DNA of 50,504 nucleotides from a virus (lineage: Duplodnaviria; Heunggongvirae; Uroviricota; Caudoviricetes). Under the pieces are notes generated by a model that was not told where the DNA came from, ran no database searches, and saw only the letters and a list, made by a program, of their open reading frames with translations. Location: the IMG/VR virus record IMGVR_UViG_3300050821_008494. One strand, 5' to 3'. The position numbers were made by a program, and so were the translations under genes. Of this stretch, positions 3,001 to 48,488 are shown in pieces (the first letter of the stretch is position 1; every line of letters begins with the position of its first letter).

Positions 3001-5296
3001 CTACGCCTGCGGGACTTGCGTCACGACGGCTACGAACATAGTCAATTCTTTGGCTCAAGGAAGTGACACGGCACTTCACGGAGTCCTCACTTTCACTAAT
3101 TCCACTTCAATAGGTATAGACCAAGCAGCATCTTCATTCTCCTTCAAACTTCTCAACCTCTCTTGTCCGACACATCAGTGGTTCTCCTCCGTTACCAGTA
3201 ACGCCCTAACTTGCACTCAGCCTGCCGTAGGAGACATCAGCGGCAACATAGTCAATGCAATCACTCAGGGCTCTCACACGTTTGTCGGAAGTGTCGGCCT
3301 TACGAACTCAACTAACATCGGATGGGACTTCAATACTGGAACGAATTCAATCAAGGGAATCATCTCAGGAGTAGTCACATCAGTGACAGGGACGTCGCCA
3401 ATCGTCTCCTCCGGAGGAACAACACCGGTAATCAGCTGCCCTGATTGCGCCACTCTTCCTTCCGCTTCTCCTGTCCTAGCTCAAAGCACTAGCACGAATA
3501 CCTGTAGCATATCCTCATCCTCAGCGAGCGCAGGTTTCACTACAGCCCTCACCTACACAACCAGCTCAACCACATCAGGTAATCTCTACGTTGCTCAGGC
3601 ATTCAACGTAGCATCACCGGCTACATCGGCACTTACAAGCACATGGCAGTTCATCTGGGGCTCAGGCTCCGCTCCGGCTTGCGCTGCCACTTCGGGTCTC
3701 GGGACAGCGGTGGGCCAGCCATACATCATACAGACTCAAGTCGGAGCAGCAGGCAGCTGGGGCCAATCAGAGGGAGTCGTAATCACGGGCCTAGCAGCAA
3801 GCACAACATACTGGTTCGACGTTCAAGTCACGGACTCTTCATCGGCTACATGGGTCTACTCCAATCAGGCCATAAGCGTAGACGAGCCGCAGGCTTCATT
3901 CAACACAGTCCCGACCGTCTCCCAGAATACAAACACGAATACTTGCACTCACACGGGAGCCGCTACTGACCTGATGGGAGGGCTGGCGGCAACCTACACC
4001 ACCCAGACTGCTGCCAACTTCGGCTCCGGTAACATACGCGCCACTCTCACCTTCATGACCAAGTCACCGGCAACTTCCGGCGACACCTACAAGTGGATTG
4101 TTGCCTACGGAACCGGAAGCGCACCTGCCTGTAATGCGGCAACTTCAGGGACGACTGTTGGGAAGCAGTTCACAGTAGAGAGTCAAGCGGCAGCAGTCAC
4201 AAGCCTAGCCCAGACCGAAACAGTTGTCATTGACGGCCTTCTTCACGGGACAGCCTACTGGTTTGACGTTCAGGCAACTGACGCATCGGTTAATCAATGG
4301 ATAACTTCTGCTCCTACTCTAGCTGTCAAGGAGGCTCCGAGCGAGCAGCAGAACAACGTCCCATCTAACGTCGTGTATCCTCTCTCCGCTCAGACTGCCG
4401 GATGCGTCACAACTACAGCAACAACGACCATGGCTGGCTTGAGAGAAGTCTACACATTGACCTCTAGCAGTTCCGGAACAATATGGGGCTCACTCACATT
4501 CAACGTCCTCGCCTCCGGAACAATAGCAGCAGGTTCAACTTCTGCTTGGACTGTGGCATACGGTGACATAACCGCCAACACTATGCCTGCCTGTGCTGCT
4601 GCCTCTGTAGGGACTTCTGTTGGAGGAACCTACACCCTCAAAACGCTCAACACGGTAGCCTTCTCCGAAGGTCAGCACGAGTCATTCGTAATCACAGGAC
4701 TGACAGCAGGCCACACCTACTGGTTCGACCTGAAGGTTACGAATACAGGCTCAACATTCACTTCAACATACAGCGTCCCAACTCTCACAATAACCGACGT
4801 TCCGCTTCAGGGAGACGTTCAGGGAGGCTCTATCGTCCACAGCAATCAGATACAGCTGACAGGAAACGCTCCGGCGTGCACAGTAGCAACAGCCAGTGTC
4901 ATAATGGGAGGTATGTCGGTAATACCGACGACTGCCAATCCTCCTATGGAATACCAGACGACGAGCTACGGAACAGGTGTAGTCACTGTTACCATGGCAG
5001 TCCAAGTTACTACTGCGGCGACTCTAAGCGCAACCTACGGATGGCAGTTCTCATACGGAACAGTTACAGACGGAACAGCGAACCCTGCTTGTAACTCTGC
5101 CGCAGCAGGAACAAAGATTGGGAACCTCTACACCATTACCGACCCTGCAGCGGTCGCAGACAAGTTTCAACAGACCATAACGGTTACTTTGAATCTGAGC
5201 CACGCTACCATGTATTGGTTCGACTTTCAGGACACCAACTCAGTAACGACAGCAGTCAACACGATTCCTCAGATAACCGTCACCGAGGCCGGTTAA
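2..5296 (+). CDS. Giant repeat-built adhesin / tail-fibre-like protein, 5'-truncated (>1,760 aa)
   Basis: Frame 2 is open from base 2 (NALTQGAHTF...), so the track's 464 start is internal. Ser/Thr/Gly/Ala-rich and nearly uncharged, with internal repeats, CxxC linkers and four C-terminal modules. Fibre/adhesin role is inferred. Confidence 0.7.
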   Translation, partial: NALTQGAHTFTGSIGLLNATNIGWDFNSGTNTISAILSGVVTSITVSGTNVLSGALTFVSSGPISVGNVGNQVIFGCPTCITTSNIASDAVTALTQGGHTFVGSIGLTNSTGIGWDFNNGANSIKAIFLTPLHFYQYGTQALTSGTASLDGQVFVSAKTLSIGGFATPASSTTVHAGTGYTLLQSSLPGYGAEYLTSPEPVPDITPVNYNATQTVGGPWVEVGFTGQPHGGAADSFTQKTSGSCTSCSSLAVSYVSGVTSGHRSMVVISWQDSAPASAPTTISSIVDTLTFSYSPLVTNSGPSAGPGAGGVTTQEYISSSIWSAPITSSGSDTVTVTMSATEADLAVEILECNGCVIGASQETSQGYGGNGLILSTSAIKETATSPITATYNQLSQSLTIACPTCAVTSSVVSALTQGSHTFTGSIGLTNSTNVGWDFNTGSNSIEAILSGVVTSVGASSPIVSSGGTTPSISCPTCITTSNIGSNAVTSIQQGSHTFIGNVALVNSTSVLWDFNTGANSIKALVTGVVTSVGGSGPISSSGGTTPTISCSTCITTGNIASNAVTAITQGSHTFVGSVALVNSTSVLWDFNTGANSIKGIVTGFVTTVNGASGAITLAATSPITVGTVGSTITYACGTCLTSAVTALTQGSHTFTGSVGLLNSTAIGFDFNTGANTVKAIILSQACPQGAAVSTQAQTPLCSYFYQYGSQALTSGSAGLTGDVFFPANSLLFAAYSSFSAATAGTGYTNLQGSFSNYGGEYQQIASAGATNFPLTQTTSGPYVEVGVASNPTGGNTATYEESAAASCTSCSSKAVAFGTNVVSGDQVFVAVSWATGAATPIAISTVTDTRSASYSGLVTQNGIVSTQSSQSASMWAATLGSSGADTVTVTMASSVNTISVSILECLNCQISGAGNYETSQGYQAQGNIMGTTAVDIAATSPITATYNQGLDLLTLACGTCETSASTFVNSIAVGANTLTGAITDAATSPITVANVGNTITYACGTCVTTATNIVNSLAQGSDTALHGVLTFTNSTSIGIDQAASSFSFKLLNLSCPTHQWFSSVTSNALTCTQPAVGDISGNIVNAITQGSHTFVGSVGLTNSTNIGWDFNTGTNSIKGIISGVVTSVTGTSPIVSSGGTTPVISCPDCATLPSASPVLAQSTSTNTCSISSSSASAGFTTALTYTTSSTTSGNLYVAQAFNVASPATSALTSTWQFIWGSGSAPACAATSGLGTAVGQPYIIQTQVGAAGSWGQSEGVVITGLAASTTYWFDVQVTDSSSATWVYSNQAISVDEPQASFNTVPTVSQNTNTNTCTHTGAATDLMGGLAATYTTQTAANFGSGNIRATLTFMTKSPATSGDTYKWIVAYGTGSAPACNAATSGTTVGKQFTVESQAAAVTSLAQTETVVIDGLLHGTAYWFDVQATDASVNQWITSAPTLAVKEAPSEQQNNVPSNVVYPLSAQTAGCVTTTATTTMAGLREVYTLTSSSSGTIWGSLTFNVLASGTIAAGSTSAWTVAYGDITANTMPACAAASVGTSVGGTYTLKTLNTVAFSEGQHESFVITGLTAGHTYWFDLKVTNTGSTFTSTYSVPTLTITDVPLQGDVQGGSIVHSNQIQLTGNAPACTVATASVIMGGMSVIPTTANPPMEYQTTSYGTGVVTVTMAVQVTTAATLSATYGWQFSYGTVTDGTANPACNSAAAGTKIGNLYTITDPAAVADKFQQTITVTLNLSHATMYWFDFQDTNSVTTAVNTIPQITVTEAG
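11..3340 (+). repeat. Dispersed ~30-aa coding repeat TQGSHTFxGS(I/V)xLxNSTx(I/V)xWDFNTGxNS(I/V)K
   Basis: Copies start near 11, 284, 1247, 1475, 1703, 1943 and 3263, with a degenerate copy (AQGSDT) near 3052. Confidence 0.9.
3500..5290 (+). repeat. Four tandem ~150-165-aa modules ending in YWFD
   Basis: YWFD at about 3809, 4256, 4718 and 5213, each preceded by a PAC(A/N)...GT.(V/I)G..(Y/F) motif. Confidence 0.85.
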
Positions 5297-13011: not shown

Positions 13012-14223
13012 ATGTCTCAAGCAACTCACGGCCAGCTGCACTTCTCCGTCGAGGGAGCCCTCATCATGGACCTCGCTCGCGACGGCTACTGGTTTGAGGG
13101 CCGCAAGGAATGGGCACTCGACCTCCTATCATGCCTCGAAGGAATCACGACCGAGCAGAGCATGAAGATTCTACGGGGAGAGGCAATCCTCAAGGGCATC
13201 AGCTCAACCGACACTACAGTTGGCTACTACGACATGCCAGACAAGGAGTTCCAGAAGCGCCTCTCTGACTACGACAAGTGGATAGCAGAGCAGGTTGAGA
13301 AGAAGCGCAAGGAAGCGGAGGAGGAGATGAACTTCCACGAAGCACAATGGGACGAGATATCCAAGATGGGGCAGAGAGCAGACCTAATGCGGAAGGCAAG
13401 TCTGCTCCGAGACGAACTCATGGAGGGCCGGCCAGAGAAGCCCAAGGAGATTGTGCCTCCGAAGAATCCTGTCAAGCTCGGCAAGTTCGTCGTCGAGAAG
13501 GAACTCCTCGACAACTACCTCAAGGTCGCCTCAGACCACGACCTCATGGACCCATGGAGTGCAGGGACAGCTCTCCTCCTCTCCGGTCGCATGATGCGAA
13601 TCCACTTGATGCTCCGCGAGTCCGTAGGTCTCCACGGCTTCTGGGGAAGGAGCGACAAGAGACCCGGAGAGCCGGACGCCTTCGACAAGGCCCTCCAAGC
13701 AGCCGTCCATTCAAACAACCGCAAGGACGACCGCTACATAGAACTCCAGAAGCGCCGGAGGCAAGGCTCAGGTTCAGAGTTCGCAGCAATGGAGTTGGCC
13801 GAGGCTTCTCTTCCTCAAGTGGAGAAATCTCCAACTACTCCAGATGAGGTCTACAAGCGGCTTCATCCGAAGGGCGAGGACGGCAAACTCATCAAGCCTC
13901 TAGTGACAGGCATACCAGCATCCAGAGGCAGAGCCTCGGGACCCGTCAAGCTAGTCCTCGACGAGAAGGACTTCGCCAGCGTCAAGAAGGGCGACGTCCT
14001 AGTCACGACAATGATAGTCCCCGACACCATCTTCGCAATCGACAAGATTGCAGCTCTCGTGACAGACGTCGGAGGGCTCACAAGCCATGCAGCCATAGTC
14101 AGCCGCGAGTTCCACGTCCCATGTATCGTCGGAGCCATCAAGGCTACCAAGTCACTCAAGGACGGCCAGAGAGTTACCGTCGATGGAACTACAGGCAAGG
14201 TCTTCCCGGAGGGTGATGTCTGA
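13012..14223 (+). CDS. Protein with C-terminal PEP-utiliser mobile (swivelling phospho-His) domain
   Basis: GRASGPVKLV...GDVLVTTMIVPD...ALVTDVGGLTSHAAIVSREFHVPCIVG...GQRVTVDGTTGKV with the catalytic His in TSH. N-terminal ~290 aa not recognised. Confidence 0.85.
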   Translation: MSQATHGQLHFSVEGALIMDLARDGYWFEGRKEWALDLLSCLEGITTEQSMKILRGEAILKGISSTDTTVGYYDMPDKEFQKRLSDYDKWIAEQVEKKRKEAEEEMNFHEAQWDEISKMGQRADLMRKASLLRDELMEGRPEKPKEIVPPKNPVKLGKFVVEKELLDNYLKVASDHDLMDPWSAGTALLLSGRMMRIHLMLRESVGLHGFWGRSDKRPGEPDAFDKALQAAVHSNNRKDDRYIELQKRRRQGSGSEFAAMELAEASLPQVEKSPTTPDEVYKRLHPKGEDGKLIKPLVTGIPASRGRASGPVKLVLDEKDFASVKKGDVLVTTMIVPDTIFAIDKIAALVTDVGGLTSHAAIVSREFHVPCIVGAIKATKSLKDGQRVTVDGTTGKVFPEGDV

Positions 14224-22976: not shown

Positions 22977-23048
22977 GGCGTGTATGCAATCCAGCCAGCT
23001 ACAGGTCAGCTTAACTTCCGGGAGCCCTAACACGGGGACTTGGTGCGT

Positions 23049-23447
23049 ATGACTTCATTCGAAGAATACCAGAGCCTTGCTCACACTACAGCGAGGTATG
23101 ACACAGATTGCAAGATGAAGGTCGGCGTAGTCCGGCCAAACAACGGACCCTCCGCAGGGATTCCAAAAGTGGACTTCAAGGACGTCCCGGTCTATCCATT
23201 CCTCAAGTCAACAGCAGAGGCAGCAGAGACCCTCGACAAAGTCGTCAAGGTCCGCTTCCGTGGAGACGCTCCGGGCTACCTGATGAAGGACGACTTGGTG
23301 AAAGAGATTGGGGACGACCTCTGGTATATCGCCGAGCGCTGCACAGTCCTCGGGGTCAGCATGGAGGAGGTCGCACGCATCAACCTTGAGAAGCTCGCAT
23401 CACGGAACGCACGTGGCGTAATCCACGGCTCAGGAGACAACCGCTGA
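23049..23447 (+). CDS. mazG: MazG-like NTP pyrophosphohydrolase
   Basis: EAAET...KEIGDDLWYIA...MEEVARINLEKLASRNARGVIHGSGDNR, the phage MazG signature. Confidence 0.9.
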   Translation: MTSFEEYQSLAHTTARYDTDCKMKVGVVRPNNGPSAGIPKVDFKDVPVYPFLKSTAEAAETLDKVVKVRFRGDAPGYLMKDDLVKEIGDDLWYIAERCTVLGVSMEEVARINLEKLASRNARGVIHGSGDNR

Positions 23448-26074: not shown

Positions 26075-26772
26075 GCAACGAATACGCCAACAGAATCCGT
26101 AGAGAGCAATACGAGCGCGGCTATGAAGGAGTCCAGATGCTCGCAAAGTTCCTAGAGTCTCACACGGGTGTTCTAACCGTGAGTGTCAACGAGGCGCAAT
26201 ACTCCCAAGGCAATATGTTCTTCCCGGACTTAGTCTTCCTCAACTATGGAGCCGAGGTCAAGCGAGCCGAGCTACTCACCAGTAACAGGTTCTCCAAAGG
26301 ACAGCAGTTCAGAGGTTCCTTGGGCTCCATTCATATCAACAACTGCGGCTGGCACAATCTCAAGGCCTACTGTCGGAAGACCTCGAAGGAGCTAGTGCTC
26401 ATAACAGTCCTGACGTTCGGAAAGCAAGACCCTCTCTTCATCGGCATAGAGCCAGAGCAGGTCGATGTCTACATATCAGAGTTCGAGAAGCGCAACCCGG
26501 ATGCCAAGCCGGTAGAGTATCAGGGCAAGCTCGTCTACAAAGAGCATCTTAGAAAGGGAGGAGCCTTCGTAGGCCATCACGAGCAGGGCAGCAGGGTCCC
26601 TGTGAACGTCTTCCGTCTTCTTCGCGACGGCAAAGTCCTAAACCACAACGACAACTTCAAGAGCTTCTTCCGGAGACTTCCTCCCGAGTATCTCCACGGC
26701 CTTCCTGCAACTTCCGAAATGTCATCTACGCTTAAAGGTGACAACTACGCCGGATGCGAAACTACCCGATGA
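26071..26772 (+). CDS. PD-(D/E)xK restriction-endonuclease-like protein
   Basis: N-terminal helix with E (RGYEG), then FFPDLVF...GAEVKR. Confidence 0.55.
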   Translation: MSNEYANRIRREQYERGYEGVQMLAKFLESHTGVLTVSVNEAQYSQGNMFFPDLVFLNYGAEVKRAELLTSNRFSKGQQFRGSLGSIHINNCGWHNLKAYCRKTSKELVLITVLTFGKQDPLFIGIEPEQVDVYISEFEKRNPDAKPVEYQGKLVYKEHLRKGGAFVGHHEQGSRVPVNVFRLLRDGKVLNHNDNFKSFFRRLPPEYLHGLPATSEMSSTLKGDNYAGCETTR

Positions 26773-27725
26773 GCGACAAGAAGCCTGAGAAGCAAGACAC
26801 AGTAGTCCTCGGAGGAGGTCTTGTTGGTCAATACGCCGCATACAAGCTAGGAGCGAAGCTCATAACACTCAAGCCGGAGAAGACAATCCCCTACATCTTC
26901 CTCCACGACGCTCCTATGAACCGCAAGATGCTTGACGACTTAGGCGTCACATACGGAACAGATGTCTGGAAAGTCGGCTTCATGTTCAAAGGTCAGCTCT
27001 ACGAAGTCGCATCTCAGGACATGGTAAACGAGTATCACACCAAGTGCTACGGCCATCCTCCGAACAAGCCTCAGTTCAAGAAGCCATACTACGATATGCT
27101 TACACCGAACTACTACGAAGTCCGCAAGAAGCTCGAAGACCTCAACAAGACCGTTCTCTATGCTCGCATCTATCACATTGACCTCATAGGGCACATCGTA
27201 GGATACGAGCTTCCTGACAAGACTCTCGGCCTTATCAAATACAAGCACCTCATCAACACTCTACCACTACCAGACCTTCTGCACATGGCGGGTGTGATAG
27301 AGTCCGAATCATACGAGTCTCGTCCAATCTTCTACTACAAGTTGCCGGAATGGCCGAAGGCCTACGAAGGCCTCGGTCTTGACACTGTCCATGTCATGGA
27401 CTTGAAGGATGAGAGGACCCGCTTCGTGAAGGGCACAGCAGAGCCAAACACCTTCTTCCTTGAGACCCTTGAGAAGGATTCCAAGTATGGTGAGCTTTCC
27501 CAAGTTGTCAAGTATGGGAAGATATTCAACCGGGGCTGGCACCTTGAGATGCGCAACAATGCGATAGAGAGGCTAGAGAAGCACGGCGTCCTTTCTGTAG
27601 GTCGCTTCGCCCGTTGGCAACAGCACTATGACACTCAAGACGCCCTTGTCCATCTTTCCGTCTTCTCATCTTCTATTAGGCCAACCAAATTCAGAACAGT
27701 GATGACGGAGATGCTTCATCTCTGA
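26769..27725 (+). CDS. FAD/NAD(P)-binding oxidoreductase (UDP-galactopyranose mutase / amine-oxidase-like architecture)
   Basis: VVLGGGLVGQYAAYKL Rossmann motif, LINTLPL, C-terminal LSVGRFARWQQHYDTQDAL; ATGA start at 26769. Confidence 0.75.
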   Translation: MSDKKPEKQDTVVLGGGLVGQYAAYKLGAKLITLKPEKTIPYIFLHDAPMNRKMLDDLGVTYGTDVWKVGFMFKGQLYEVASQDMVNEYHTKCYGHPPNKPQFKKPYYDMLTPNYYEVRKKLEDLNKTVLYARIYHIDLIGHIVGYELPDKTLGLIKYKHLINTLPLPDLLHMAGVIESESYESRPIFYYKLPEWPKAYEGLGLDTVHVMDLKDERTRFVKGTAEPNTFFLETLEKDSKYGELSQVVKYGKIFNRGWHLEMRNNAIERLEKHGVLSVGRFARWQQHYDTQDALVHLSVFSSSIRPTKFRTVMTEMLHL

Positions 27726-28771
27726 GCGAGCTTCCGTGTCGCAACTGTGGGAACATAGAGACGACTCATCCATCTTCGGTTTGTGAGGTCTACGAGCCTA
27801 TGAGGCAACTTGACCTCTCTATCATCAGAGACCATCTTGCCAAGTCGAAGGCCTTCTCAAGCCTCTTCTTCGACTTCGCGACGGAAGACCTTTCCCTCAA
27901 AGAGAAGGCGACGAAGGATTTGGCTTTGGGCGTCATCACAGAAGCTATGAGCGTCCTCGACGCCGTGAACTGGAAAGTTCACCACGGCGAGAAGTTTCCG
28001 GTTAGTCGCAGCAACCTTCTCGAACAGCTCATCGACGTCTACAAGTATCTCATGAGCATAGCCTCCCTCTGGAACTTCACTCCGCAAGAATGGCAGGAGG
28101 AGTTCGAGCGGAAGGACTTAGTCAACTGGCAGCGATACAGGCAGGACACAACTATCAAGACCCTGACTGCGGCGTCAAAAGTAGCGGCAATCGACATTGA
28201 CGGAGTCCTTTGTGCCTACCCAGAGAACATCATAGCCTTCATGAACAGGCGCTTCGCGAAGGTAGTTACCCTGAAGGACATCAAATCCCTTCACGGGGTC
28301 GAGGACGCATACCTAGAGCAAGGCGTCAAGGCGTCAGACTATCGACTGGCTCGCCTCGACTTCTTGGAGGAGGGTTGGTATTCGAAGTATTCACCTGTGA
28401 TGAATGGAGCCTCAGAGTTCACACACAAGCTCAAAGACCTCGGCTACACCATAGTCCTTCTAAGCTCTCGTCCCTACGAGAAGCACCACAGGATATTCGG
28501 CGACACCGTCGAGTGGTGTCAGGCCAACAAGATTGCCTTCGACATCATCTACTGGGACAAGGACAAGGACATGAGAATCATCAAGACCTTCCCCAACCTC
28601 CGGTTCCTTCTCGACGACGACGTTGACAACGTCCGCGAAGTCGCGAAGGCCGGTTATCTTTCGATACTTTTCGAGAGACCATACAACCGTCGCTCTCTGA
28701 CTACAAACTTCTTGATAGCTTCAACCTACGACGAAGTCATAGGCCATCTGACAGAGCCACAAGTGGCTTGA
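27722..28771 (+). CDS. Fusion: Zn-knuckle + all-alpha dUTPase/dCTPase-like domain + HAD 5'-nucleotidase-like domain
   Basis: CTGA start adds CRNCG...H...C. Then ITEAMSV...NWKVHH...LEQLIDV. HAD motifs AIDIDGV, LSSR and LLDD. Confidence 0.75.
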   Translation: MSELPCRNCGNIETTHPSSVCEVYEPMRQLDLSIIRDHLAKSKAFSSLFFDFATEDLSLKEKATKDLALGVITEAMSVLDAVNWKVHHGEKFPVSRSNLLEQLIDVYKYLMSIASLWNFTPQEWQEEFERKDLVNWQRYRQDTTIKTLTAASKVAAIDIDGVLCAYPENIIAFMNRRFAKVVTLKDIKSLHGVEDAYLEQGVKASDYRLARLDFLEEGWYSKYSPVMNGASEFTHKLKDLGYTIVLLSSRPYEKHHRIFGDTVEWCQANKIAFDIIYWDKDKDMRIIKTFPNLRFLLDDDVDNVREVAKAGYLSILFERPYNRRSLTTNFLIASTYDEVIGHLTEPQVA

Positions 28772-30088: not shown

Positions 30089-30709
30089 TTGATACTCCAA
30101 CTCCTCGTCGGACTTAGCCTCGTTCTCGCAGGCTACCAAGATGTCAAGGAGCGCAAGGTCAGGGACTTCTTCTGGCTACCCGGAGCTGTCGGTCTAGCAA
30201 TCGCAATCCTCATCCTCCGCTCTCCATCTCTAGTCTTTGCCGTCGTCCTAGTCGGCATCATAGCATTCTTCGTCGCCAAGGCAGGTATGTTCGGTCAAGC
30301 AGACGGCATAGCGTTCCTCTTCATCATAGCAGACCCTGCCCCATACGCTCCGGCACCAGCTCTAATCGTTCTGGCCTTCGTAGTCGTGGCGCACTCAGTA
30401 TTCCTCTACAGAAAGGGCTTCATCAGGAAGCTCACCATAAGCCTCGACCGCTTCAACTCAGAAGCCCAGTGGATTCCACGGAGTCTAATCGTGAACGGAG
30501 TCAAGACCATGAACCTCATGAACGTCAACAACTCCCGCGAGCGAATCGAGAAGGCGAGCAAGGCAAGGGAGAACGACGAAGTCAAGCAGGACGTTCAAGT
30601 TGAGGTAGTCTACGGCGTGCCAACAGTAGCCTACATTGCCGTGGCTTACGTTGGCTACGTCGTCTTCCTCGCTTTTGCCGCACCGCACTTTCTCTTCTCA
30701 GTCCCGTGA
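30089..30709 (+). CDS. Class III signal (prepilin/prearchaellin) peptidase, A24 / FlaK-PibD-like
   Basis: Multi-TM. Catalytic Asp motifs YQDVKERKV and GMFGQADG, cytoplasmic insert W(I)P, terminal YGVPTVAYIAVAY TM; RBS AAGGAGG. Confidence 0.85.
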   Translation: MILQLLVGLSLVLAGYQDVKERKVRDFFWLPGAVGLAIAILILRSPSLVFAVVLVGIIAFFVAKAGMFGQADGIAFLFIIADPAPYAPAPALIVLAFVVVAHSVFLYRKGFIRKLTISLDRFNSEAQWIPRSLIVNGVKTMNLMNVNNSRERIEKASKARENDEVKQDVQVEVVYGVPTVAYIAVAYVGYVVFLAFAAPHFLFSVP

Positions 30710-30770: not shown

Positions 30771-30986
30771 TTGACTCCCGAGAAAGAACCGCCAATCGAC
30801 CTCTCCAAGCTAACCCAAGGTCAGCTTTGGGCGAGCCTACGGAAGTGCTGGAAGGCCTACCGCATCGCCAAGGTTCAGGCCGACAAAGAAGTCATGAAGA
30901 AATACGCCTTGCGAATCGTAGCGATTCAGGACGCCCTGAAGGTCCCGCATTCCATCTTCGAAGTCTTGCAGTTGGATGCGTCCTAG
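30771..30986 (+). CDS. Hypothetical basic protein
   Basis: TTG 9 nt after the operator; ...LWASLRKCWKAYRIAK... Confidence 0.5.
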   Translation: MTPEKEPPIDLSKLTQGQLWASLRKCWKAYRIAKVQADKEVMKKYALRIVAIQDALKVPHSIFEVLQLDAS

Positions 30987-30987
30987 A

Positions 30988-31287
30988 ATGGCCGACCAAG
31001 AACTCCGCGACAAACAGTTTGCGAACGTCCTCAAAGTCCTACAGGCAACGTTCCATCAGAAGAACCTAGACCATGCCGACTCCTACTTGGAGAATCCGAA
31101 GACCGAGCAAGAAGCCTTCTTTCCAATCAGGCACAAGTATGAGCGCATCGTAGCGATACTCAAGATTCCTGAGAGCCAGAGGACCGACGGTCAGAAGATG
31201 ACTATGCTTGAAGACCTTCGGGACCTCTGCGTCTACTCTGTGATGTTTGACATCTGGCAACTTCAAGGAAGTCGTGGAGTCGAGTAG
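30988..31287 (+). CDS. DUF1599 / nucleotide-modification-associated domain 1-like protein (copy A)
   Basis: FHQKNLDHA...IRHKYERI...EDLRDLCVYS matches the K..DY / DK..R / D...Y pattern. Confidence 0.55.
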   Translation: MADQELRDKQFANVLKVLQATFHQKNLDHADSYLENPKTEQEAFFPIRHKYERIVAILKIPESQRTDGQKMTMLEDLRDLCVYSVMFDIWQLQGSRGVE

Positions 31288-31289
31288 AC

Positions 31290-32081
31290 CTGCCAGTATC
31301 GAACGACCAGATTAGGCATGACGCTTCCGAATGGTATCGCCCCAATCTTCACGTTGGCGAGGCTCCCTTCAACTCATTCTCCTTCCTCTCCGACGAACTA
31401 GCGATACTCATCAGCCCGAAGGAAGAGCGCTACGAGGAAATCATCAACACAATGTATCAAGTCCAACTAGCAACTTGGACAGACAAGGTGATACTGGATG
31501 TAACCTTCGAGGAGAAGGAGGCCAAGGTCAAGCAGGCTCTCACGAGGCGTGTCGGGACTCCCCTTCTGGAAAGTCTCTGCCTCACATTCGCCCTCCAGAA
31601 CGTTCCTCGGAGCCTGACACACCAAATCGTCCGTGCTCGCAAACTCGGCTTCGGTCAGCAGGCGATGAGGGTCAACGATGTTCGGCATCAGCCTGTCCGT
31701 CTACCAACCACGATAGAAGGAAGCGAGTTCGAAGAGCCCTACAAGGAACTCGTTGGAGCAATCAAGAGGTTCTACGCTCGCATGATAGACCACGGCATCC
31801 CCGTCGAGGACGCTCGCAACATCATGCCAATGGGAACCATGACCTACATCACAGTGACTGGTCAACTCCGGTTCTGGCTCGAACTCTGGCAAGGTCGAGC
31901 ACAGAAGGCCGCTCAGAATGAGTATCGTGTTCTAGTTCACAAGATGCTCGACGAGTTCAGTGTCAGGATGCCAAGACTCTTCTCTCTCCTTGTAACTTCC
32001 AACTCCATACCTACAAAGGTCTGGCTCGATGACCTTTCACAGGCCGACCGAGTCCGCATGGGACTCGGGACACCGGAGTAG
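31290..32081 (+). CDS. thyX: ThyX (flavin-dependent thymidylate synthase) homolog with altered signature
   Basis: LTFALQNVPRSLTHQIVRARKLGFGQQAMR, HGIPVEDARNIMPMGTMTYITVTG.LR...GRAQKAAQNEYR. Frame is open upstream of ATG 31452 to CTG 31290 (TAG-AC-CTG). Confidence 0.85.
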   Translation: MPVSNDQIRHDASEWYRPNLHVGEAPFNSFSFLSDELAILISPKEERYEEIINTMYQVQLATWTDKVILDVTFEEKEAKVKQALTRRVGTPLLESLCLTFALQNVPRSLTHQIVRARKLGFGQQAMRVNDVRHQPVRLPTTIEGSEFEEPYKELVGAIKRFYARMIDHGIPVEDARNIMPMGTMTYITVTGQLRFWLELWQGRAQKAAQNEYRVLVHKMLDEFSVRMPRLFSLLVTSNSIPTKVWLDDLSQADRVRMGLGTPE

Positions 32082-32909: not shown

Positions 32910-33533
32910 ATGGCACGCCAGCGTTATGTTCAACAGATACTCCCTTCGACAGTCCAAGAGAAGCGCGGCTACAAAAGCGAGACACAGCAGAAGAACCTCA
33001 TGTGGCTTCTCCCTCGCCCGAAGAGAGACCACTACAAAGGAGGTATGCCGCTCTACGCCGAAGAATGGCTCCTCCAGCTCGCCAATGAAATCTTCGGCAT
33101 CAACTACGACTGGGGCAAGAAGACCCTTCTCCAAGTCTTCGCCGGGATGAACAAGTATGGGCTCCGTGTTGACCTGAACAAAGAAGTCAAACCGGACTAC
33201 GTCGGCGACATCCACAGGCTCTCTAAGATTCTACCCAAGAAGATGCTCAAGAAGTTCCCAGTCATCGTAGCCGACCCCGCATACTCCGACGATGAGAATG
33301 AGAAGCTCTACGGTCTAAAGATGCATCTCAGCTACAAGCTCTGGTCTTCGGAATGCATCAAGTTCCTCCGACCCGGAGGCCTCTTCATAGTCTACCACAA
33401 GAACCTGATGCGCAACCCTGACCCAGAGAGGTTCACCGTCGTGAAGCGCGTAGCAATCGCAAACCGTGTCGGCCACGTTGGGAGGTTTGCCGTCTTCTTT
33501 CAAATGAAGGGAGGCAGGAGGCAGCTCAATTGA
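32910..33533 (+). CDS. Compact amino-(N6A/N4C) methyltransferase-like protein
   Basis: Motif I LQVFAG, then VDL...PDYVGD, motif IV VIVADPAY, LRPGG. Confidence 0.7.
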   Translation: MARQRYVQQILPSTVQEKRGYKSETQQKNLMWLLPRPKRDHYKGGMPLYAEEWLLQLANEIFGINYDWGKKTLLQVFAGMNKYGLRVDLNKEVKPDYVGDIHRLSKILPKKMLKKFPVIVADPAYSDDENEKLYGLKMHLSYKLWSSECIKFLRPGGLFIVYHKNLMRNPDPERFTVVKRVAIANRVGHVGRFAVFFQMKGGRRQLN

Positions 33534-33736
33534 ATCTTAAAGTCCGGACAGTCACAATCTACCGCGATGACAGCACAACCCAAGTCGTCTACGAGAACGT
33601 CAAGCACATATTCTGGACAGCAGGTAACACCGTTCTAGTTCTCGCAATCTACAAGCACGCCGAAGAAGACGACTCTCATTTCTACGTCCATTGGCTCCGG
33701 GAGCGCATCTGCTGGTTCAAGGACGTGCCACAATGA
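33530..33736 (+). CDS. Hypothetical protein
   Basis: TTGA and ATGA coupling. Confidence 0.55.
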   Translation: MNLKVRTVTIYRDDSTTQVVYENVKHIFWTAGNTVLVLAIYKHAEEDDSHFYVHWLRERICWFKDVPQ

Positions 33737-34089
33737 TTACCGTCGAAGCTCTCCTCGCTTGGCGCAAGAAGCACATCTGGGACTTCCTCGACAACATGGC
33801 AAAGGAGAAGGGCTCCGACTACTCCGGAGAAGGCGAGGTTGACACTTTCAGGAATCTTCGCCTAGTCGAATACACCATGGAGATTCCAACAGAGGTCGGA
33901 ATCCAAATCCGTCTTCACGACAAGTTCATGCGCACCAACATCCTCCTCAAGCGCGAGTGGGAATCAGGCAGAGGGCCTTCCGTCAAAGACGAGTCTCTCT
34001 CAGTTACAATCCTAGACCACATCAACTACCTCACCTACATCCAAGCTCTCCGAGCCGAACGGTTCAACAAAGGGGTCCTCCCAGAATGA
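33733..34089 (+). CDS. DUF1599 / nucleotide-modification-associated domain 1-like protein (copy B)
   Basis: KEKGSDYS...DTFRN...IRLHDKFMR...ESLSVTILDHINY. Confidence 0.7.
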   Translation: MITVEALLAWRKKHIWDFLDNMAKEKGSDYSGEGEVDTFRNLRLVEYTMEIPTEVGIQIRLHDKFMRTNILLKREWESGRGPSVKDESLSVTILDHINYLTYIQALRAERFNKGVLPE

Positions 34090-35169: not shown

Positions 35170-37920
35170 TTGCCTTACCTGTGCCTCGATACAAACTGTA
35201 ACACCATGTTCGGTGACGCCTCCGGTTATCGTTCTGGCAAGCCTCATTGCCCCAAGTGTGGAGGCGACAAGGTCCTCGCTCCCGGTCGAAAGTCCATACG
35301 TTCCATAGACCCTTCTCTGATGCCATACCGGACCTACGACAAACCCCTCGACCCACGGACCCTCCCCGTGTTCTACAAGCTCTCGACCTTCACCGACGAA
35401 GACACCCAAACTGATTGGATGGCAATTCACAAGCCGAAGGACAACGGCGATGGCAACGAGATACTCTTCGCACGTCCTCCCTTCAAGCCCTACTACTTCA
35501 TCGACGAGCTAGGCTACAGCCAGAACCAGAGTTCAATTGACGGACTCCTCCAGCAATTCCACGGCTCCATAGACCGGAAGTTCAAAGGCTTCCAAGCCGG
35601 AGGAGACCATCGCCCTGTCATCAAGGTAGAGTTCCGCAGCGACCCGGAGCGCAAACGTTCATCCTACCAGATTGACAAATTCGTCCGCTGCTATCAATCC
35701 AACACACCTCACACGGCAAGTATCCTTCGTGACTTAGACATCCAAATCAAAGGCTACCCAACACGTATGGTCTGGGACTCGGAGGTTGACCCGCGCAACG
35801 TTCCAAACCTCCAGCGCAACGACGGTCGCATCATACTCATCTGCGGAGTCGGATACAAGGTCGGGAGCGGCACAAGTAGGCTTGCAGGCCTCAACGACAA
35901 TCTGATGACAGGATACATCAACCCTAGCGGAGATGTAGTCCCGCATCCTGTCGAAGGTGGGGTCAGGCAATACGTCTTCCGTCTGACAGAAGACACAGAC
36001 GTCTCAGTAGCACGCGATGTCCTTCGACCATTCCTCAAGGAAGCCTTCAACTACAGCGCACTGATGGGATTCTATTCCGCGAAGTTCGACGTCCCATACA
36101 CTCAGATTTGGATAGCCCGTCTCAAGCTTGGGTTTGACTTCGACTTCATTACAGTATTCGACTTCCATAACATCTACACTGTCCTCAACACTAACAACTG
36201 GGACGACCGCAAGTTCAACCTCGACTCTATCGCAACGCGAGAATTCGGAGAGGGAGAGGGCAAAGAGAAAATCAAGGACTACCAAGTCCTCTGGGACTGG
36301 TGGGTCTCCAAGGACCCCCGTCTTGTCTCCTACTGTCTCCAAGATGCTGACCTAGTCCGCAGGCTCGATGAGAAGTGGAGTGGCATTGACAGTCGCCTTG
36401 TCGCAACGAACCTCACAAACGTCCGTCCTGACGCTTACATCTCGTATATGCCGGGCATAGAGTCAATCACAGTCAAGAAGCTCAACAAGCGTAATCCTTC
36501 CGAAGTTCTCTACACTCCTTCTGGCAAGCGCCAGTCCAGCACATACGAGGGTGCAATGGTCTTCGACCCCGTCAAAGGAGTCCACGACAACGTAGTGTTC
36601 CTAGACGCAAAGGCCATGTATCCCCACATCATCAGAACATTCAACATAGGACTCGACACCCTCGACCCGAACGGAGAAATCCATACACCCAAGGCCAACT
36701 TCAAGAACAAGCCCGACAGCGTCTCCAAGGAAGTGCTTGACGAGCTAGAAAAGTGGCGCGAGTTCTACAAGGCAGAGCGCGACAAATACGAAGTCGATTC
36801 CGAGAAGTGGTCAGAGTTCGAGAAGAAGCAGTGGGTCGTCAAATACTACATGGTGTCATACTACGGAGTCCTCGGCTCAACTTGGTCGTTCATGTATGAG
36901 CCCTCCGTCGCAGAGGCCATAACTCTCCTCGGTCAGCAAATCCTCGGATGCGCTCGTCACATCCTCCAATACATGGGCTACCCGGTCCTCTACGGAGACA
37001 CGGACTCCCTCTGTCTGAAACTAACAGACGAGGAAATCTTCGGCTACCGACCGACAGAGGCACAATACAAGAAGTTCAAAGCACGCACCTGCCCGAAGGA
37101 CACCTGCCGGACTCCTCTGGATTGGAATTGGAAGGGCGACCCCGTAACAGGAGGACCCGAGGGCTACTGTCCCAACTGCAAGAAAGTCATGATGACAGTC
37201 AAGCTCTTGAAGACTCTCTGCCTAAGTCGCGTCCTTGCTGACGTCGTCGAGCGAGCTGTGAACTACTTCGCGGAGACTCGCTTCCATGTTCTAGCTCCGC
37301 AGATGGAGTTCGAGGTTGACAAGGTCTACCAATGGGTCTACTTTACGAAGGTCAAGAAGCGCTACGCAGGGCCTATGCTCTGGAAGGGAGTCCCTCTTCC
37401 GGAGCCAAAGCTCAAGATTACCGGCTTCGAGTCCAAGAGAACAGATTGGCCTAAGTTCATCCAGAGTATCCAACTGAGATGCTTCGACCTTCTCGGCTCC
37501 CATGCTCCAGAGAAGACGGTCCTCGACTACGTCGAGAGCGAACTTGACTCCCTCTACAGAGGAGAACGAGACCAAGACATCATACAGAAGAAGGTCATCC
37601 GTCGCAAGGTCGAAGACTATGGCAAGAAGATGGTAGACGGTATAGTCGTCTCAAACCGTGGCGCAATCCCTCCATACGTCCGGGCTGCCAAGATTATGCG
37701 GGACGAGCGCCACATGGACATCAGGGTAGCCCAGCAAATCCTCTACTACATGAGCATGGACAAGCAGGTCATCCCGGTCTACGAAGACGAGCCTCTTCCC
37801 AAGCTCTCAAAGGACTTCTATGACTATACACGCAAGCAGGTTTATGCTGTCCTAGAACGAATGGAGCTTCCTGTTGGAGTAATTGGCAACCACAGTCCAG
37901 AGGAGGTCTTCGCATCTTGA
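35170..37920 (+). CDS. polB: Family B DNA polymerase with N-terminal Zn finger and palm Zn-ribbon insertion
   Basis: ExoI WDSE, ExoII FDVPY, ExoIII YCLQD; Pol A DAKAMYP, Pol B KYYMVSYYG, Pol C YGDTDS; KKRY; ITGFESKRTD. Confidence 0.95.
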   Translation: MPYLCLDTNCNTMFGDASGYRSGKPHCPKCGGDKVLAPGRKSIRSIDPSLMPYRTYDKPLDPRTLPVFYKLSTFTDEDTQTDWMAIHKPKDNGDGNEILFARPPFKPYYFIDELGYSQNQSSIDGLLQQFHGSIDRKFKGFQAGGDHRPVIKVEFRSDPERKRSSYQIDKFVRCYQSNTPHTASILRDLDIQIKGYPTRMVWDSEVDPRNVPNLQRNDGRIILICGVGYKVGSGTSRLAGLNDNLMTGYINPSGDVVPHPVEGGVRQYVFRLTEDTDVSVARDVLRPFLKEAFNYSALMGFYSAKFDVPYTQIWIARLKLGFDFDFITVFDFHNIYTVLNTNNWDDRKFNLDSIATREFGEGEGKEKIKDYQVLWDWWVSKDPRLVSYCLQDADLVRRLDEKWSGIDSRLVATNLTNVRPDAYISYMPGIESITVKKLNKRNPSEVLYTPSGKRQSSTYEGAMVFDPVKGVHDNVVFLDAKAMYPHIIRTFNIGLDTLDPNGEIHTPKANFKNKPDSVSKEVLDELEKWREFYKAERDKYEVDSEKWSEFEKKQWVVKYYMVSYYGVLGSTWSFMYEPSVAEAITLLGQQILGCARHILQYMGYPVLYGDTDSLCLKLTDEEIFGYRPTEAQYKKFKARTCPKDTCRTPLDWNWKGDPVTGGPEGYCPNCKKVMMTVKLLKTLCLSRVLADVVERAVNYFAETRFHVLAPQMEFEVDKVYQWVYFTKVKKRYAGPMLWKGVPLPEPKLKITGFESKRTDWPKFIQSIQLRCFDLLGSHAPEKTVLDYVESELDSLYRGERDQDIIQKKVIRRKVEDYGKKMVDGIVVSNRGAIPPYVRAAKIMRDERHMDIRVAQQILYYMSMDKQVIPVYEDEPLPKLSKDFYDYTRKQVYAVLERMELPVGVIGNHSPEEVFAS

Positions 37921-44745: not shown

Positions 44746-44907
44746 GTGTCAAGGTGCGACATCTGCCTCAAGGAGGACTCAATCATGAAAGTCGGTTCTC
44801 TTGTTGAAACCGGCCAAGAGTGTTGGAACAAGATTTCGAAGCGCAAGGTAAAGATAACTCCGACAACGAAGGCCGAGACTCTAAGGAGGGTCATTGGCTT
44901 TGGGTGA
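44746..44907 (+). CDS. Small hypothetical protein (53 aa)
   Basis: CDIC...EC; overlaps the next start. Confidence 0.4.
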   Translation: MSRCDICLKEDSIMKVGSLVETGQECWNKISKRKVKITPTTKAETLRRVIGFG

Positions 44908-46258
44908 TTTCATTACAGACCTCTCAGCGCACATTCAAGCCCACTGCGAGACTAATCCTCTCTGGGCGGACACAGTCTCAATGGCTACTCTCGCTTCTGT
45001 TCTCGAAGGCCTACACTTCACGACCATAGTCGGCCCTCTGAACCTGAACATCTACGCCCTCTGTATCGGACCCAGCGGACTCGCCAACAAGACAGTTCCC
45101 ATGAAGAACTTCGTGATGCCAATCCTAGAGAAGGCAGGAGAGGTCGCGAGTTCTGACTTCGTCCTCCCTTCGAGGTTCTCTCTCGAAGGTCTGATAGCAC
45201 GGCTCAATGAAGGGAGCAAGAAGTCCTCCGGTCTAATCTGGACAGACGAGTTCACCCACGTTCTCAAGGAGGCATACGGCGCAGGCTACCTCTCCGAGAT
45301 TCTAGAATTCCTAAGTGAACTCTACGATGGCACAGCCCAGAAGCGCTACACCAAGAAGGCAAAGCTCGAAGAGTCCAAGAACGTCTTCGTGAACTTCCTG
45401 AGTGCGACAACTCCATACATCTACGAAGTCATGAAGCCTGAGATGTTCCTTCAAGGGACAGCCAACAGATTCCTCTTCGTGGTCTTCAAGGACGCAGTCG
45501 AGAGGAAATACACACCAGACCAATACTTCGCCAGAGACGATGCTGTCCAAAACTCGAAGGAGACTAACGACCTTTTTGGAGCAACCCTCGGAGAGCTTCG
45601 CAGACAGCTAGACCATGGCTACAGGGTAGACATAGACCGGGAGAGCAACGCAGGCAAAATACTCCTCGACTTCCGGGAGCGCTGTATCAAACAGACCAGA
45701 GAACAATACTCTGAGGCTCGCCCTCGGGACTTCGGCTACAGCTACCTAGTCCGCCAGCCCGAAATCTGTTTCAAGGTCGCAGCAATCAAAGCAGTTAGCG
45801 ACTACTGCGGAAGCGACTATACCAAGAGTTCCTTCTTCCGCTCGAAGGTCCTGAGAGAGATTCTGATTAAGGAAGCCCACGCCAAATGGGCAGTTGACAT
45901 GATGGCTCTTTATCAAGCCAACTTCCTGAGACTTCAAGAAGAGTGGGGCAGGCACACGACGGAGAAGAAGCCCGTCCTAACTCTCGACAAGCACCAAGAC
46001 CTGATACGGGGTTACATCAAGGACGCCGGTGGAGCAATTCTCCTGAAGGTTCTGAAGAACCAGATGAGCATCAAAGGTTCCGAAGTTACCGACACCCTTG
46101 AGACCATGACATCTACCGTAGAGCTTTTCCCTAATCACGAGAACCCTGTTGACAGTCCTCGTTACAATCAGCTCTGCATCCAGTTGAAGGTCGTTAGAAG
46201 CTCTAAGGGAGGAGCACCTCCGCAGATAGTAGCCTTCAAACCAAAACAGAAGAAGTGA
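44894..46258 (+). CDS. DUF3987/YfjI-like AAA+ helicase with C-terminal wHTH-like region
   Basis: NIYALCIGPSGLANKT, FSLEGLI, LIWTDEF, SELYDG, LSATTP, GTANRFL; RBS AAGGAGG. Confidence 0.75.
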   Translation: MALGDFITDLSAHIQAHCETNPLWADTVSMATLASVLEGLHFTTIVGPLNLNIYALCIGPSGLANKTVPMKNFVMPILEKAGEVASSDFVLPSRFSLEGLIARLNEGSKKSSGLIWTDEFTHVLKEAYGAGYLSEILEFLSELYDGTAQKRYTKKAKLEESKNVFVNFLSATTPYIYEVMKPEMFLQGTANRFLFVVFKDAVERKYTPDQYFARDDAVQNSKETNDLFGATLGELRRQLDHGYRVDIDRESNAGKILLDFRERCIKQTREQYSEARPRDFGYSYLVRQPEICFKVAAIKAVSDYCGSDYTKSSFFRSKVLREILIKEAHAKWAVDMMALYQANFLRLQEEWGRHTTEKKPVLTLDKHQDLIRGYIKDAGGAILLKVLKNQMSIKGSEVTDTLETMTSTVELFPNHENPVDSPRYNQLCIQLKVVRSSKGGAPPQIVAFKPKQKK

Positions 46259-46911: not shown

Positions 46912-47088
46912 ATGATGTGTGCAAAAACGGAAGGCGCGACGGCTACGCGAAGCGTTAGGTCTTCTTGGGAGGTTATTTTCCCAGTAGAAGCGCGACACGT
47001 AGACAACAGCAGGCAGAAGGACAGTAACACCCGACACGGCAGGTGGGTGCACGTCCCGAAGATTTACTCGATGGAGGTGTCTGCATGA
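46912..47088 (+). CDS. 58-aa micro-protein with MMCAKT leader (not in track)
   Basis: MMCAKTEGATATRSVRSS...; ends in an ATGA overlap with the next gene. Confidence 0.5.
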   Translation: MMCAKTEGATATRSVRSSWEVIFPVEARHVDNSRQKDSNTRHGRWVHVPKIYSMEVSA

Positions 47089-48488
47089 TGGCGGGCACCG
47101 TAGTCTCGACGGCCTCTGACGACGAAGTCGAGGCAGTGGAGACGGTGATACAGGGGTCCCAGAAGGCGCAATATCTAGCTCGCCAGAAGGACTCATTCAT
47201 GGAGCTAGGAGGAGGCCCTCAAGGATGGAGACCAGCTCCTCTGGAAGGCATCGAGCACCGCTACTCTCCCGGCGACACGCTGCGAATGGGCAAGCCTCAA
47301 ATCATCTACCACTTCGCCATTCCAGCAGACTACAACGAAGTCTACCCATACAGCGCAATCATAGTGCGCAAGCACAACGCTGACCCGGATAACGCCGACA
47401 ACCAGATGAACATCCAGCAGCTCAATCATGACGTCTACTGCCAGCTCTGCGGTTGGGCTCCTCTTGTCAACCACTGGCCAATTCTCAACGACAAGCGCAG
47501 GCTTGTAGTTCAAGTCGGCTCCGAGTGCGTCGAGAACTTCATGGGTGCAGGCTACTTGACCAAGGAGGTCAAGAAGTTCCGAGCCACGAAGTTCCGCGAG
47601 GCCTTCGACTCTTGGATTGAGGGAGCCCAAGAGGAATGCGAAAGTCACCGAGGTCCGAGCTACAAGAACAAGTGGGGCAGCATGCAGGCAGGATGGCTCC
47701 CAGAGGAATACTTCTTCTTCGAGAAGAAGCTCGGCAAGCTCGAAGCGAAGACCCTCACGACCCGGAAGATTGTCAACATCTTCAAGGCCGCATACGAGCT
47801 GAAGCTGACAATCCCCGGAGTCGCAGCCCAGATGATAGGACTCCCCGACGCAATCACAGTCAGGAAGGTCGTGGAAGCTCCTAAGTCACCTACCCCAGTA
47901 GAGCAGAAGCCCTCTGCTCCTCCGGCACCCGTAGTCCCTACGGGTCCGAAGCAATTCCAGAGGACTAGGTCCCACGGCAGCATCGTGGAGCTTGAGGTCG
48001 CTCAAGGATGGGTCGAGGCGAACTTCAACAAGGAGTCTCGCCTGTGGGTCCCGAAGGAAGGCGCTACTCCCAAGTCAGCGCAGCCGGTAGCTCCGGTTGC
48101 ACCTGCGGCTCCTTCATCTAGGACCGACATCTCAACAATCACGACCGGAGTCTACGAGACTCCAGACCACACCATCTACGTCGTGCGTCCTAACCGCGAT
48201 GGCACGCGGCACTACGCCAAGAAGCTCAAGCAGGCTCCTAGCGAGCGCACGACAGAATCAGGTCAGCACGTCAACTTCGACTTCGAGTATGACAAGGGAG
48301 CCATCTTCAAGCTCAAGCCGGAATACCGGATGAGCGAGGAGCGAGCGAAGGAGTTGACCGTCCTCTATGGCCACTGTATTGTTTGTGGTCGCACTCTGAA
48401 GGAAGCGAAGTCCGTGGAGCGAGGAATCGGCCCCATATGCATCAAGCTGGTGCGTGGCAAGGCCGCATCCGAGGAGACCACGGCATGA
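47085..48488 (+). CDS. Multidomain protein with a Zn-binding middle and C-terminal DUF6011-like Zn finger
   Basis: CQLCG...HW...GSEC; Pro/Ala linker; HCIVCGRTL...SVERGIGPIC; RBS GGAGGTG before ATG 47085. Confidence 0.7.
   Translation: MMAGTVVSTASDDEVEAVETVIQGSQKAQYLARQKDSFMELGGGPQGWRPAPLEGIEHRYSPGDTLRMGKPQIIYHFAIPADYNEVYPYSAIIVRKHNADPDNADNQMNIQQLNHDVYCQLCGWAPLVNHWPILNDKRRLVVQVGSECVENFMGAGYLTKEVKKFRATKFREAFDSWIEGAQEECESHRGPSYKNKWGSMQAGWLPEEYFFFEKKLGKLEAKTLTTRKIVNIFKAAYELKLTIPGVAAQMIGLPDAITVRKVVEAPKSPTPVEQKPSAPPAPVVPTGPKQFQRTRSHGSIVELEVAQGWVEANFNKESRLWVPKEGATPKSAQPVAPVAPAAPSSRTDISTITTGVYETPDHTIYVVRPNRDGTRHYAKKLKQAPSERTTESGQHVNFDFEYDKGAIFKLKPEYRMSEERAKELTVLYGHCIVCGRTLKEAKSVERGIGPICIKLVRGKAASEETTA

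Follow-up and report, generated by a model that had tools for sequence, protein, structure and literature searches.

The virus record IMGVR_UViG_3300050821_008494 from IMG/VR comprises 50,504 nucleotides, and this whole stretch is referred to here as the window. At positions 31290 to 32081 on the plus strand, which carries all of the window's genes, lies a ThyX-like (Thy1-fold) gene of 263 codons and a TAG stop (32079-32081). At 26754 to 27725, 3.5 kb upstream of it and also on the plus strand, lies a gene for a 323 aa flavoprotein with a UDP-galactopyranose mutase (UGM)-like fold. The ThyX-like protein lacks the histidine that stacks on folate in canonical ThyX, and it is the pairing of such ThyX proteins with this flavoprotein that forms the subject of the present analysis.

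The ThyX-like gene (31290-32078, yielding a 263 aa product on translation) had been called a ThyX homologue in a first-pass annotation of this DNA, and both profile searches and structure prediction agree. Pfam Thy1 (PF02511) matched the protein with 99.1 bits (E 3.6e-28; cut-off 24.8) and PHROG thymidylate-synthase families also matched, with the best solved sequence relatives being the ThyX proteins of M. tuberculosis and C. glutamicum, at only E 1e-6. An AlphaFold2 model from an 11-sequence alignment had a mean predicted local distance difference test (pLDDT) of 85.8 and was matched by Foldseek to T. maritima ThyX structures with a probability of 1.00, an E value of ~1e-9 and template modelling (TM) scores by target of 0.70-0.73. 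As modelled, therefore, the protein has a genuine ThyX fold. Against the NCBI thyX equivalog TIGR02170 it scored 77.4 bits, below the cut-off of 87.9; relatives without His53 scored 72.9-92.2 and a canonical representative 182.9. Moreover, the alignments to the Pfam and TIGR profiles do not start before profile position 34-42, suggesting that the ~80 N-terminal residues, the canonical folate-loop region, have also been rebuilt.

The reading frame had been described as intact, and this is so for all 263 codons and the TAG, albeit with no ATG, GTG or TTG to start it. The frame is open from 31251 (276 codons), and no in-frame ATG, GTG or TTG occurs between the preceding stop at 31248-31250 and an ATG at 31452, so that public gene calls give a truncated 209 aa product. 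We rejected this ATG-started gene model, as it would remove a conserved and well-folded N-terminal part. Alignments with the closest relatives start at residue 5-13 of the 263 aa translation, conserved N-terminal motifs sit upstream of Met55, and the N-terminal 54 residues are modelled as part of the domain with a pLDDT of 90-95. A GGAG lies 10 nt upstream of a CTG at 31290, and this CTG is 2 nt past the stop of a 103 aa Nmad1/DUF1599-like gene (30976-31287, plus strand). Given the alignment of the N-terminus with relatives, its good predicted folding and the upstream GGAG, the long form is taken to be the real gene, and translation probably starts at CTG 31290 or by reinitiation at that junction. 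We also considered and rejected a frameshift that would have fused the gene to the Nmad1 gene before it, as the homologues begin at the equivalent position and the two are separate genes. An identical ThyX-like protein is present on two or three contigs.

Active-site residues are given in T. maritima numbering, which was checked letter for letter against the PDB chains (tag offset 12) and mapped through a 156-sequence alignment. The stretch equivalent to R78-Y91 reads RARKLGFGQQAMRV (31632-31673, plus strand) and lies within HQIVRARKLGFGQQAMRV, encoded at 31620-31673, whose R-A-R starts at 31632. The canonical R-H-R-x7-S followed by R90-Y91 is replaced here by R-A-R-x7-A-M-R-V. The first-pass annotation had proposed the substitutions H79A, S83G, S88A and Y91V, and all four were recovered in the PDB-anchored alignment together with N85G; a fifth, E86Q, proved to be no deviation, as glutamine occupies position 86 in almost all canonical ThyX representatives. 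The same annotation was right that VGTPLLES (31551-31574, plus strand; RRVGTPLLES at about 31545-31574) stands in place of H53-E-T-P-F-E58-H59, with E58 kept and both histidines lost; His53 is replaced by Gly or Val, given a one-residue alignment ambiguity, and His59 by Ser. Further changes are N163Q, L173G and H178A. Arg78, Arg80, Arg90 and the Arg174 equivalent in GRAQ are kept as it had stated, and so are Q75, R147, R165, E58, Q180 and E182. The Arg174 equivalent is Arg203, in WQGRAQK (codon at 31896-31898, plus strand), a residue with a role in dUMP activation (PMC8316439).

In canonical ThyX, the folate pterin and the reduced isoalloxazine both have His53 as a stacking partner, and Tyr91 and Asn85 hydrogen-bond to this histidine to keep it in place (PMC11940539). 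Tyr91 and Ser88 are the proposed general acids for carbon transfer, and mutation of Tyr91 makes flavin oxidation ~1000-fold slower (PMC11940539, PMC8316439). Mapped onto these roles, the alignment shows the predicted dUMP-holding and dUMP-activating side of the window protein, formed by the Q75, R78, R80, R90, R147 and R174 equivalents, to be intact and its folate/flavin-latch side to have been removed.

A scan of 1.84 billion representatives returned 2373 relatives at E <= 0.001, and the best 155 were used for the alignment and tree. Among these 155 the family consists of a canonical clade (His53, His59 and RHR..S.SQ.SQRY) and three non-canonical clades, all of which lack both His53 and His59 and have no aromatic side chain at position 91. 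Clade A, which holds the window protein, is marked by RHR.M.FGQ[QE]S.R[VI], clade B by IPSSWEF and RTR..S.AQQ.MR[VI], and clade C by RTRIG..FGQQGGRD. His53 and an aromatic residue at 91 were both present in 65 representatives, both absent in 74 and mixed in 16; this coupling fits the published His53-Tyr91 latch. Hence loss of His53, His59 and Tyr91, as judged by alignment, is a character of large virus-borne clades and is not private to the window gene. What is found in the window copy only, among the 155, is H79A together with S88A, although Ala or Thr at position 79 and Ala, Gly or Thr at position 88 occur singly elsewhere. The rarity implied by the first-pass annotation thus holds for this combination but not for the His53 and Tyr91 losses, which are clade-wide in many viral homologues. 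Clade-specific conserved residues (D130, R132 and R137) occupy the active-site loop after R90, and the branch of the window protein is no longer than those of its tree neighbours. We considered whether His53 might have been lost to suit an archaeal C1 carrier (e.g. methanopterin) and rejected this, as phages infecting Pseudomonas, E. coli and Rhizobium have lost the same residues.

The flavoprotein belongs to a family of ~300 aa proteins with an N-terminal GxGxxG, an invariant YxxK and a C-terminal GRFAxW; the window copy reads GRFARW at the last of these and retains all family-invariant residues. No Pfam or NCBIfam family matches it. Its nearest Atlas clusters hold viral 'hypothetical proteins' and amine-oxidase/PPOX-like flavoproteins and are 95-100% viral. 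The best PDB fold matches of its model (pLDDT 75.7) were UGMs (TMq ~0.62, E 1e-10) followed by PHBH-type monooxygenases, and solved UGMs exceed it in length by 50-190 residues. Both UGM and ThyX catalysis proceed via a flavin N5-carbon adduct (cf. the title of PDB 5hhf).

Three genes are co-conserved with the contigs of the closest relatives, namely the ThyX-like gene, the ~100 aa gene upstream of it and the ~300 aa flavoprotein gene. Profiles from the window and its relatives were searched against 54 IMG/VR loci with Thy1 homologues. The flavoprotein was found in 20/23 loci with a His53-less ThyX and in 0/33 canonical loci (Fisher p 2e-12), and after near-identical loci had been collapsed, in 17/18 and 0/21, respectively (p 4e-10); as the loci are related, these p values describe a lineage-wide linkage and not independent events. 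The three flavoprotein-less exceptions are cut contigs together with L001, which ends 117 bp past the ThyX gene. The linkage extends over all three non-canonical clades and reaches cultured phages: the flavoprotein and the ThyX-like protein are ORF65 and ORF59 in Pseudomonas phage 14-1 (Pbunavirus), gp33 and gp35 in Escherichia phage FEC19 (Wifcevirus), and gp191 and gp196 in Rhizobium phage RHph_Y65. With a clade-B flavoprotein as query, 362 phage records matched. The window's own flavoprotein gave no match to cultured phages by tblastn, the matches having come only with clade-B and clade-A phage copies. Labels for the family are inconsistent: Pbunavirus records call the flavoprotein 'hypothetical protein' or 'UDP-galactopyranose mutase', and RHph_Y65 gp191 (2425-3387 of locus L070) bears the RefSeq label 'polysaccharide deacetylase'.

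Cellular genomes gave a very different picture. For the archaeal-type flavoprotein there was no confirmed match in 185,579 prokaryote species (one genome each), and the clade-B flavoprotein had five matches in the same set, all on contigs of 9-59 kb from metagenome-assembled genomes and all followed directly by a His53-less ThyX (5/5). The pair is therefore essentially virus-restricted. Taken together, the locus comparisons show that the predicted UGM-like flavoprotein is an obligate genomic partner of His53-less ThyX genes. This pairing is the most informative point about the locus, and it had been missed by the first-pass annotation. Literature searches covering ThyX-like proteins, phage hypermodification, UGM and Nmad1 yielded no account of a His53-less subfamily or of a flavoprotein partner. 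STSV2-type archaeal viruses were considered as close relatives of the window element and rejected, the STSV2 ThyX being near-canonical and without the flavoprotein.

By its gene content the window element is archaeal-virus-like. It carries archaeal-type replication genes for a family B polymerase, an RFC-like clamp loader, an ERCC4/XPF nuclease and RNase H, along with a weak primase small-subunit match. The polymerase gene (35170-37920, plus strand) lies downstream of the nucleotide module, an order shared with two relatives (L002 and L004). Two genes upstream of the ThyX-like gene, both on the plus strand, are predicted to act on nucleotides: a MazG-like nucleoside triphosphate pyrophosphohydrolase (23040-23447) and a 323 aa fusion (27800-28771) of an N-terminal all-alpha dUTPase_2/MazG-like pyrophosphatase (PPase; a weak match) with a C-terminal NT5C pyrimidine 5'-deoxynucleotidase. 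The same PPase-NT5C fusion is found in relative L015, and its two parts are separate genes in L001. The closest relatives have an HD-type (YfbR-like) 5'-nucleotidase in place of NT5C and a dTMP-kinase-like gene right after the ThyX-like gene. Scans of the window's genes found no ThyA and no second Thy1 gene.

The Nmad1-like gene directly upstream of the ThyX-like gene is kept in relatives, and the window has a second Nmad1-like paralogue at 33691-34089 (plus strand). PF07659 ('Nucleotide modification associated domain 1') matched 4/10 of the profile-linked Nmad1-like homologues (best E 3.9e-13), and a direct Pfam scan of the two window genes gave no PF07659 match. Two genes downstream of the ThyX-like gene lies a DNA-methyltransferase-like gene of 207 aa (32910-33533, plus strand), which contains an ADPAY (DPPY-like) motif and matches DNA methyltransferases in PHROG but nothing in Pfam. 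On a related contig (L005; ENA contig k141_651717, 2934-5146), the ThyX-like gene is followed by genes for an orphan of 331 aa, another Nmad1-like protein and a radical SAM/SPASM protein, and the module there may include additional tailoring chemistry.

We hypothesise, at a little under even confidence, that the pair forms a two-component ThyX-derived flavin system making 5-substituted dUMP for modified viral DNA. The ThyX-like protein would be the nucleotide-binding half of this virus-specific system. A carbon unit carried as an adduct on flavin N5 would still be transferred to C5 of dUMP, with the donor and reduction side rebuilt and supplied by the partner flavoprotein. The product would be dUMP with a C5 substituent that differs from the plain methyl group of dTMP, such as 5-hydroxymethyl-dUMP or a form with a larger 5-alkyl group; after phosphorylation, the family B polymerase of the element itself would incorporate it into viral DNA. 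MazG and the PPase-NT5C fusion would purge dTTP and dTMP (or dUTP), as in classical thymine-replacing phages; in phage PhiW-14, pools contain no dTTP yet thymine is present in the DNA (PMC5977210). We favour this reading because the pair is kept by very different viruses and not by cells, because canonical catalysis leans heavily on Tyr91 and Ser88, and because a PPase-deoxynucleotidase fusion fits the removal of dTTP and dTMP. Moreover, Pbunaviruses, which have the pair and are without known hypermodification genes, bear a thymidine derivative: a hypermodified thymidine takes the place of about a quarter of T in their DNA, and its genetic origin is unassigned (PMC12191111).

Several observations weigh against a modified product. 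The window holds no glycosyltransferase, 5-hydroxymethyluracil kinase or other known hypermodification gene, and MazG, nucleotidases and ThyX also occur together in viruses with ordinary DNA. In Pbunavirus DNA ~75% of T remains ordinary and the mark is found in TG (PMC12191111), a specificity that calls for a post-replicative step beyond a pool enzyme. A His53-less ThyX is the only thymidylate-synthase-family gene in complete genomes that have the pair (14-1, FEC19 and two complete clade-A IMG/VR phages), as would be expected of a plain source of dTMP. A block of dUTPase, ThyX and Nmad1 genes in Asgard wyrdviruses has been published as thymidylate supply (bioRxiv 10.1101/2021.07.29.453957). 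Lastly, T. maritima ThyX with the H53A mutation was crystallised with folate bound (PDB 4gtf), so that loss of His53 alone does not prove that folate use is lost, and an S88A mutant has also been crystallised (PDB 3g4a). This also qualifies the first-pass inference that FAD and nucleotide binding are retained and that methylenetetrahydrofolate (CH2-THF) use may be lost in favour of a different substrate or donor: an altered enzyme is supported by the kept dUMP arginines, by the loss of His53, Tyr91 and Asn85 and by the sub-equivalog score, but the end of folate use need not follow.

Much of this would be accommodated by ordinary dTMP synthesis through an altered two-component route, which we regard as the strongest competitor, distinctly possible but less probable than a modified product. 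Here the flavoprotein would replace the lost half-reaction, through NAD(P)H-driven flavin reduction or one-carbon delivery, possibly without folate, and the module would boost dTTP. All dUMP-activating residues are kept, and the gene sits in a replication and nucleotide module beside the polymerase. Formaldehyde can directly replace CH2-THF for ThyX (PMC8316439), and some UGMs bind NADPH (PDB 5vwt). However, such a route leaves unexplained why a one-gene enzyme should take a two-gene form in diverse viruses and almost never in cells. It also has to dispense with Tyr91 and Ser88, both reported to be critical for the canonical reaction, and a PPase-pyrimidine 5'-deoxynucleotidase fusion would be expected to break down dUMP or dTMP instead of providing them.

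A bolder version of the chemistry, which we consider unlikely, would make the ThyX-like protein and its UGM-like partner together a folate-independent reductive C5-alkylase. The flavin N5 would form a carbinolamine or iminium with a non-folate aldehyde such as an aldose in its open-chain form, in the way that UGM reacts with galactose; attack by C5 of dUMP would then give 5-(polyhydroxyalkyl)- or otherwise 5-alkylated dUMP for viral DNA. By arithmetic, a pentose-derived 5-(tetrahydroxypentyl)-deoxyuridine has a mass of 362 Da, equal to that reported for the nucleoside of phage F8, a mass that an ether-linked tetritol on 5-hydroxymethyl-deoxyuridine fits equally.

It is improbable that the window copy is inactive or decaying, either as a relic or as a non-catalytic nucleotide-binding subunit. 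Such a state might be suspected from the H79A and S88A combination, seen in no other of the 155 representatives, and from the lack of an ATG, GTG or TTG at the homologous N-terminus. Nevertheless, the frame has stayed open over 276 codons, its 54 N-terminal residues are conserved and fold well, and the substitutions at positions 79 and 88 each recur in other lineages. The branch is no longer than neighbouring ones in the tree, the partner flavoprotein retains its family-invariant residues, and the identical protein occurs on two or three contigs. Least probable, by a small degree, is a substrate other than dUMP, be it UMP (as for polyoxin PolB), dCMP, CMP or uracil in a polynucleotide: a ThyX paralogue of widened range does exist in PolB, a UMP/dUMP methylase (PDB 4p5b; PMC5954106), and the conserved D130, R132 and R137 in the loop after R90 are clade-specific, but the arginines that bind the phosphate and polarise the uracil have all been conserved, the surrounding genes belong to deoxynucleotide metabolism and DNA replication rather than to antibiotic synthesis or RNA modification, and PolB is unpaired with a flavoprotein and keeps the canonical motifs.

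Set beside known systems, the window protein shares with canonical ThyX/FDTS (T. maritima TM0449, PDB 1O26) its fold and Q75, R78, R80, R90, R147, R165 and R174. It differs in that His53, His59, Tyr91, Ser88, His79 and Ser83 are replaced, in that its N-terminal ~80 residues fall off the family profiles, and in being accompanied, unlike canonical ThyX loci, by a UGM-like flavoprotein gene. The pairs of phages 14-1, FEC19 and RHph_Y65 likewise lie upstream of a DNA polymerase in the same paired arrangement, and their ThyX-like proteins have also lost His53, His59 and Tyr91. However, those phage proteins belong to another clade (RTR motif, Trp/Phe in the His53 segment) at ~25-30% identity, whereas the window copy falls in an archaeal-virus-like subclade; the window flavoprotein gene lies at a distance from the ThyX-like gene and is not adjacent, and the window module adds Nmad1 genes and the PPase-NT5C fusion. 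Hypermodified T is known for Pbunavirus DNA (PMC12191111). The wyrdvirus block, compared here by its published description, is likewise archaeal and spindle-virus-related, with ThyX beside Nmad1 (DUF1599) and a dUTPase-type pyrophosphatase, and has been read as plain dTMP supply (bioRxiv 10.1101/2021.07.29.453957).

Neofunctionalised thymidylate synthases offer a further comparison. To our knowledge, polyoxin PolB is the only experimentally shown neofunctionalised ThyX. This UMP/dUMP C5-methylase (PDB 4P5A/4P5B) shares the fold (rank 8 in the Foldseek matches) but is a cellular protein from Streptomyces, encoded in an antibiotic cluster, with canonical motifs and no flavoprotein partner. Phage enzymes of the ThyA family, namely the dCMP hydroxymethylase of T4, the dUMP hydroxymethylase of SPO1 and PhiW-14, and the flavin-using 5-hydroxy-dCMP synthase of RB69 and DLP3 (PMC13326640), follow the same logic, in which an altered thymidylate synthase homologue gives a modified pyrimidine deoxynucleoside monophosphate (dNMP) and is encoded beside dNTPases, nucleotidases and a dNMP kinase. 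Unlike the window protein, they have the unrelated ThyA fold and their products are known. A possible parallel within the Thy1 family, likened by description only, is gp130 of Bacillus phage SP-15, an additional Thy1-family protein for which a role as hydroxymethyluridylate synthase has been hypothesised, in a phage whose DNA has 5-(dihydroxypentyl)uracil (PMC5977210); SP-15 also has a more ordinary Thy1 gene.

ThyX is well known from textbooks and as a drug target, and these data point to a large virus-restricted branch of its family that lacks the folate/flavin latch, is tied to a second flavoprotein and has members both in phages of Pseudomonas and E. coli and in archaeal virus-like elements. 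The window adds a separate archaeal-virus-like subclade, with the H79A and S88A losses, no canonical start, a PPase-NT5C fusion and Nmad1 genes. Should the product be a modified pyrimidine, the pair would be to ThyX what the hydroxymethylases and hydroxylases of T-even and SPO1-type phages are to ThyA, and a prime candidate for the thymidine hypermodification of therapeutic PB1-like phages. Should it instead be dTMP, made with a different donor or reductant, the pair would constitute a new route to thymidylate. In either case the database label 'FAD-dependent thymidylate synthase' is unproven for His53-less genes.

Elsewhere in the window, an open frame of at least 1764 aa (2-5296) runs off the window start and has weak fibronectin-type-III-like matches. 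A 403 aa protein (13012-14223) carries a C-terminal PEP-utilising-enzyme mobile (phosphohistidine swivel) domain (85 bits), unusual cargo for a virus-like element, and its N-terminal 320 residues match no family. Between the nucleotidase fusion and the Nmad1 and ThyX genes lies a 206 aa membrane protein (30089-30709) that weakly matches type IV leader peptidases (A24). Lastly, a DUF3987 (primase/helicase-associated) protein of 454 aa (44894-46258) and a DUF6011-containing protein of 481 aa (47043-48488) carry the replication module to the window end.

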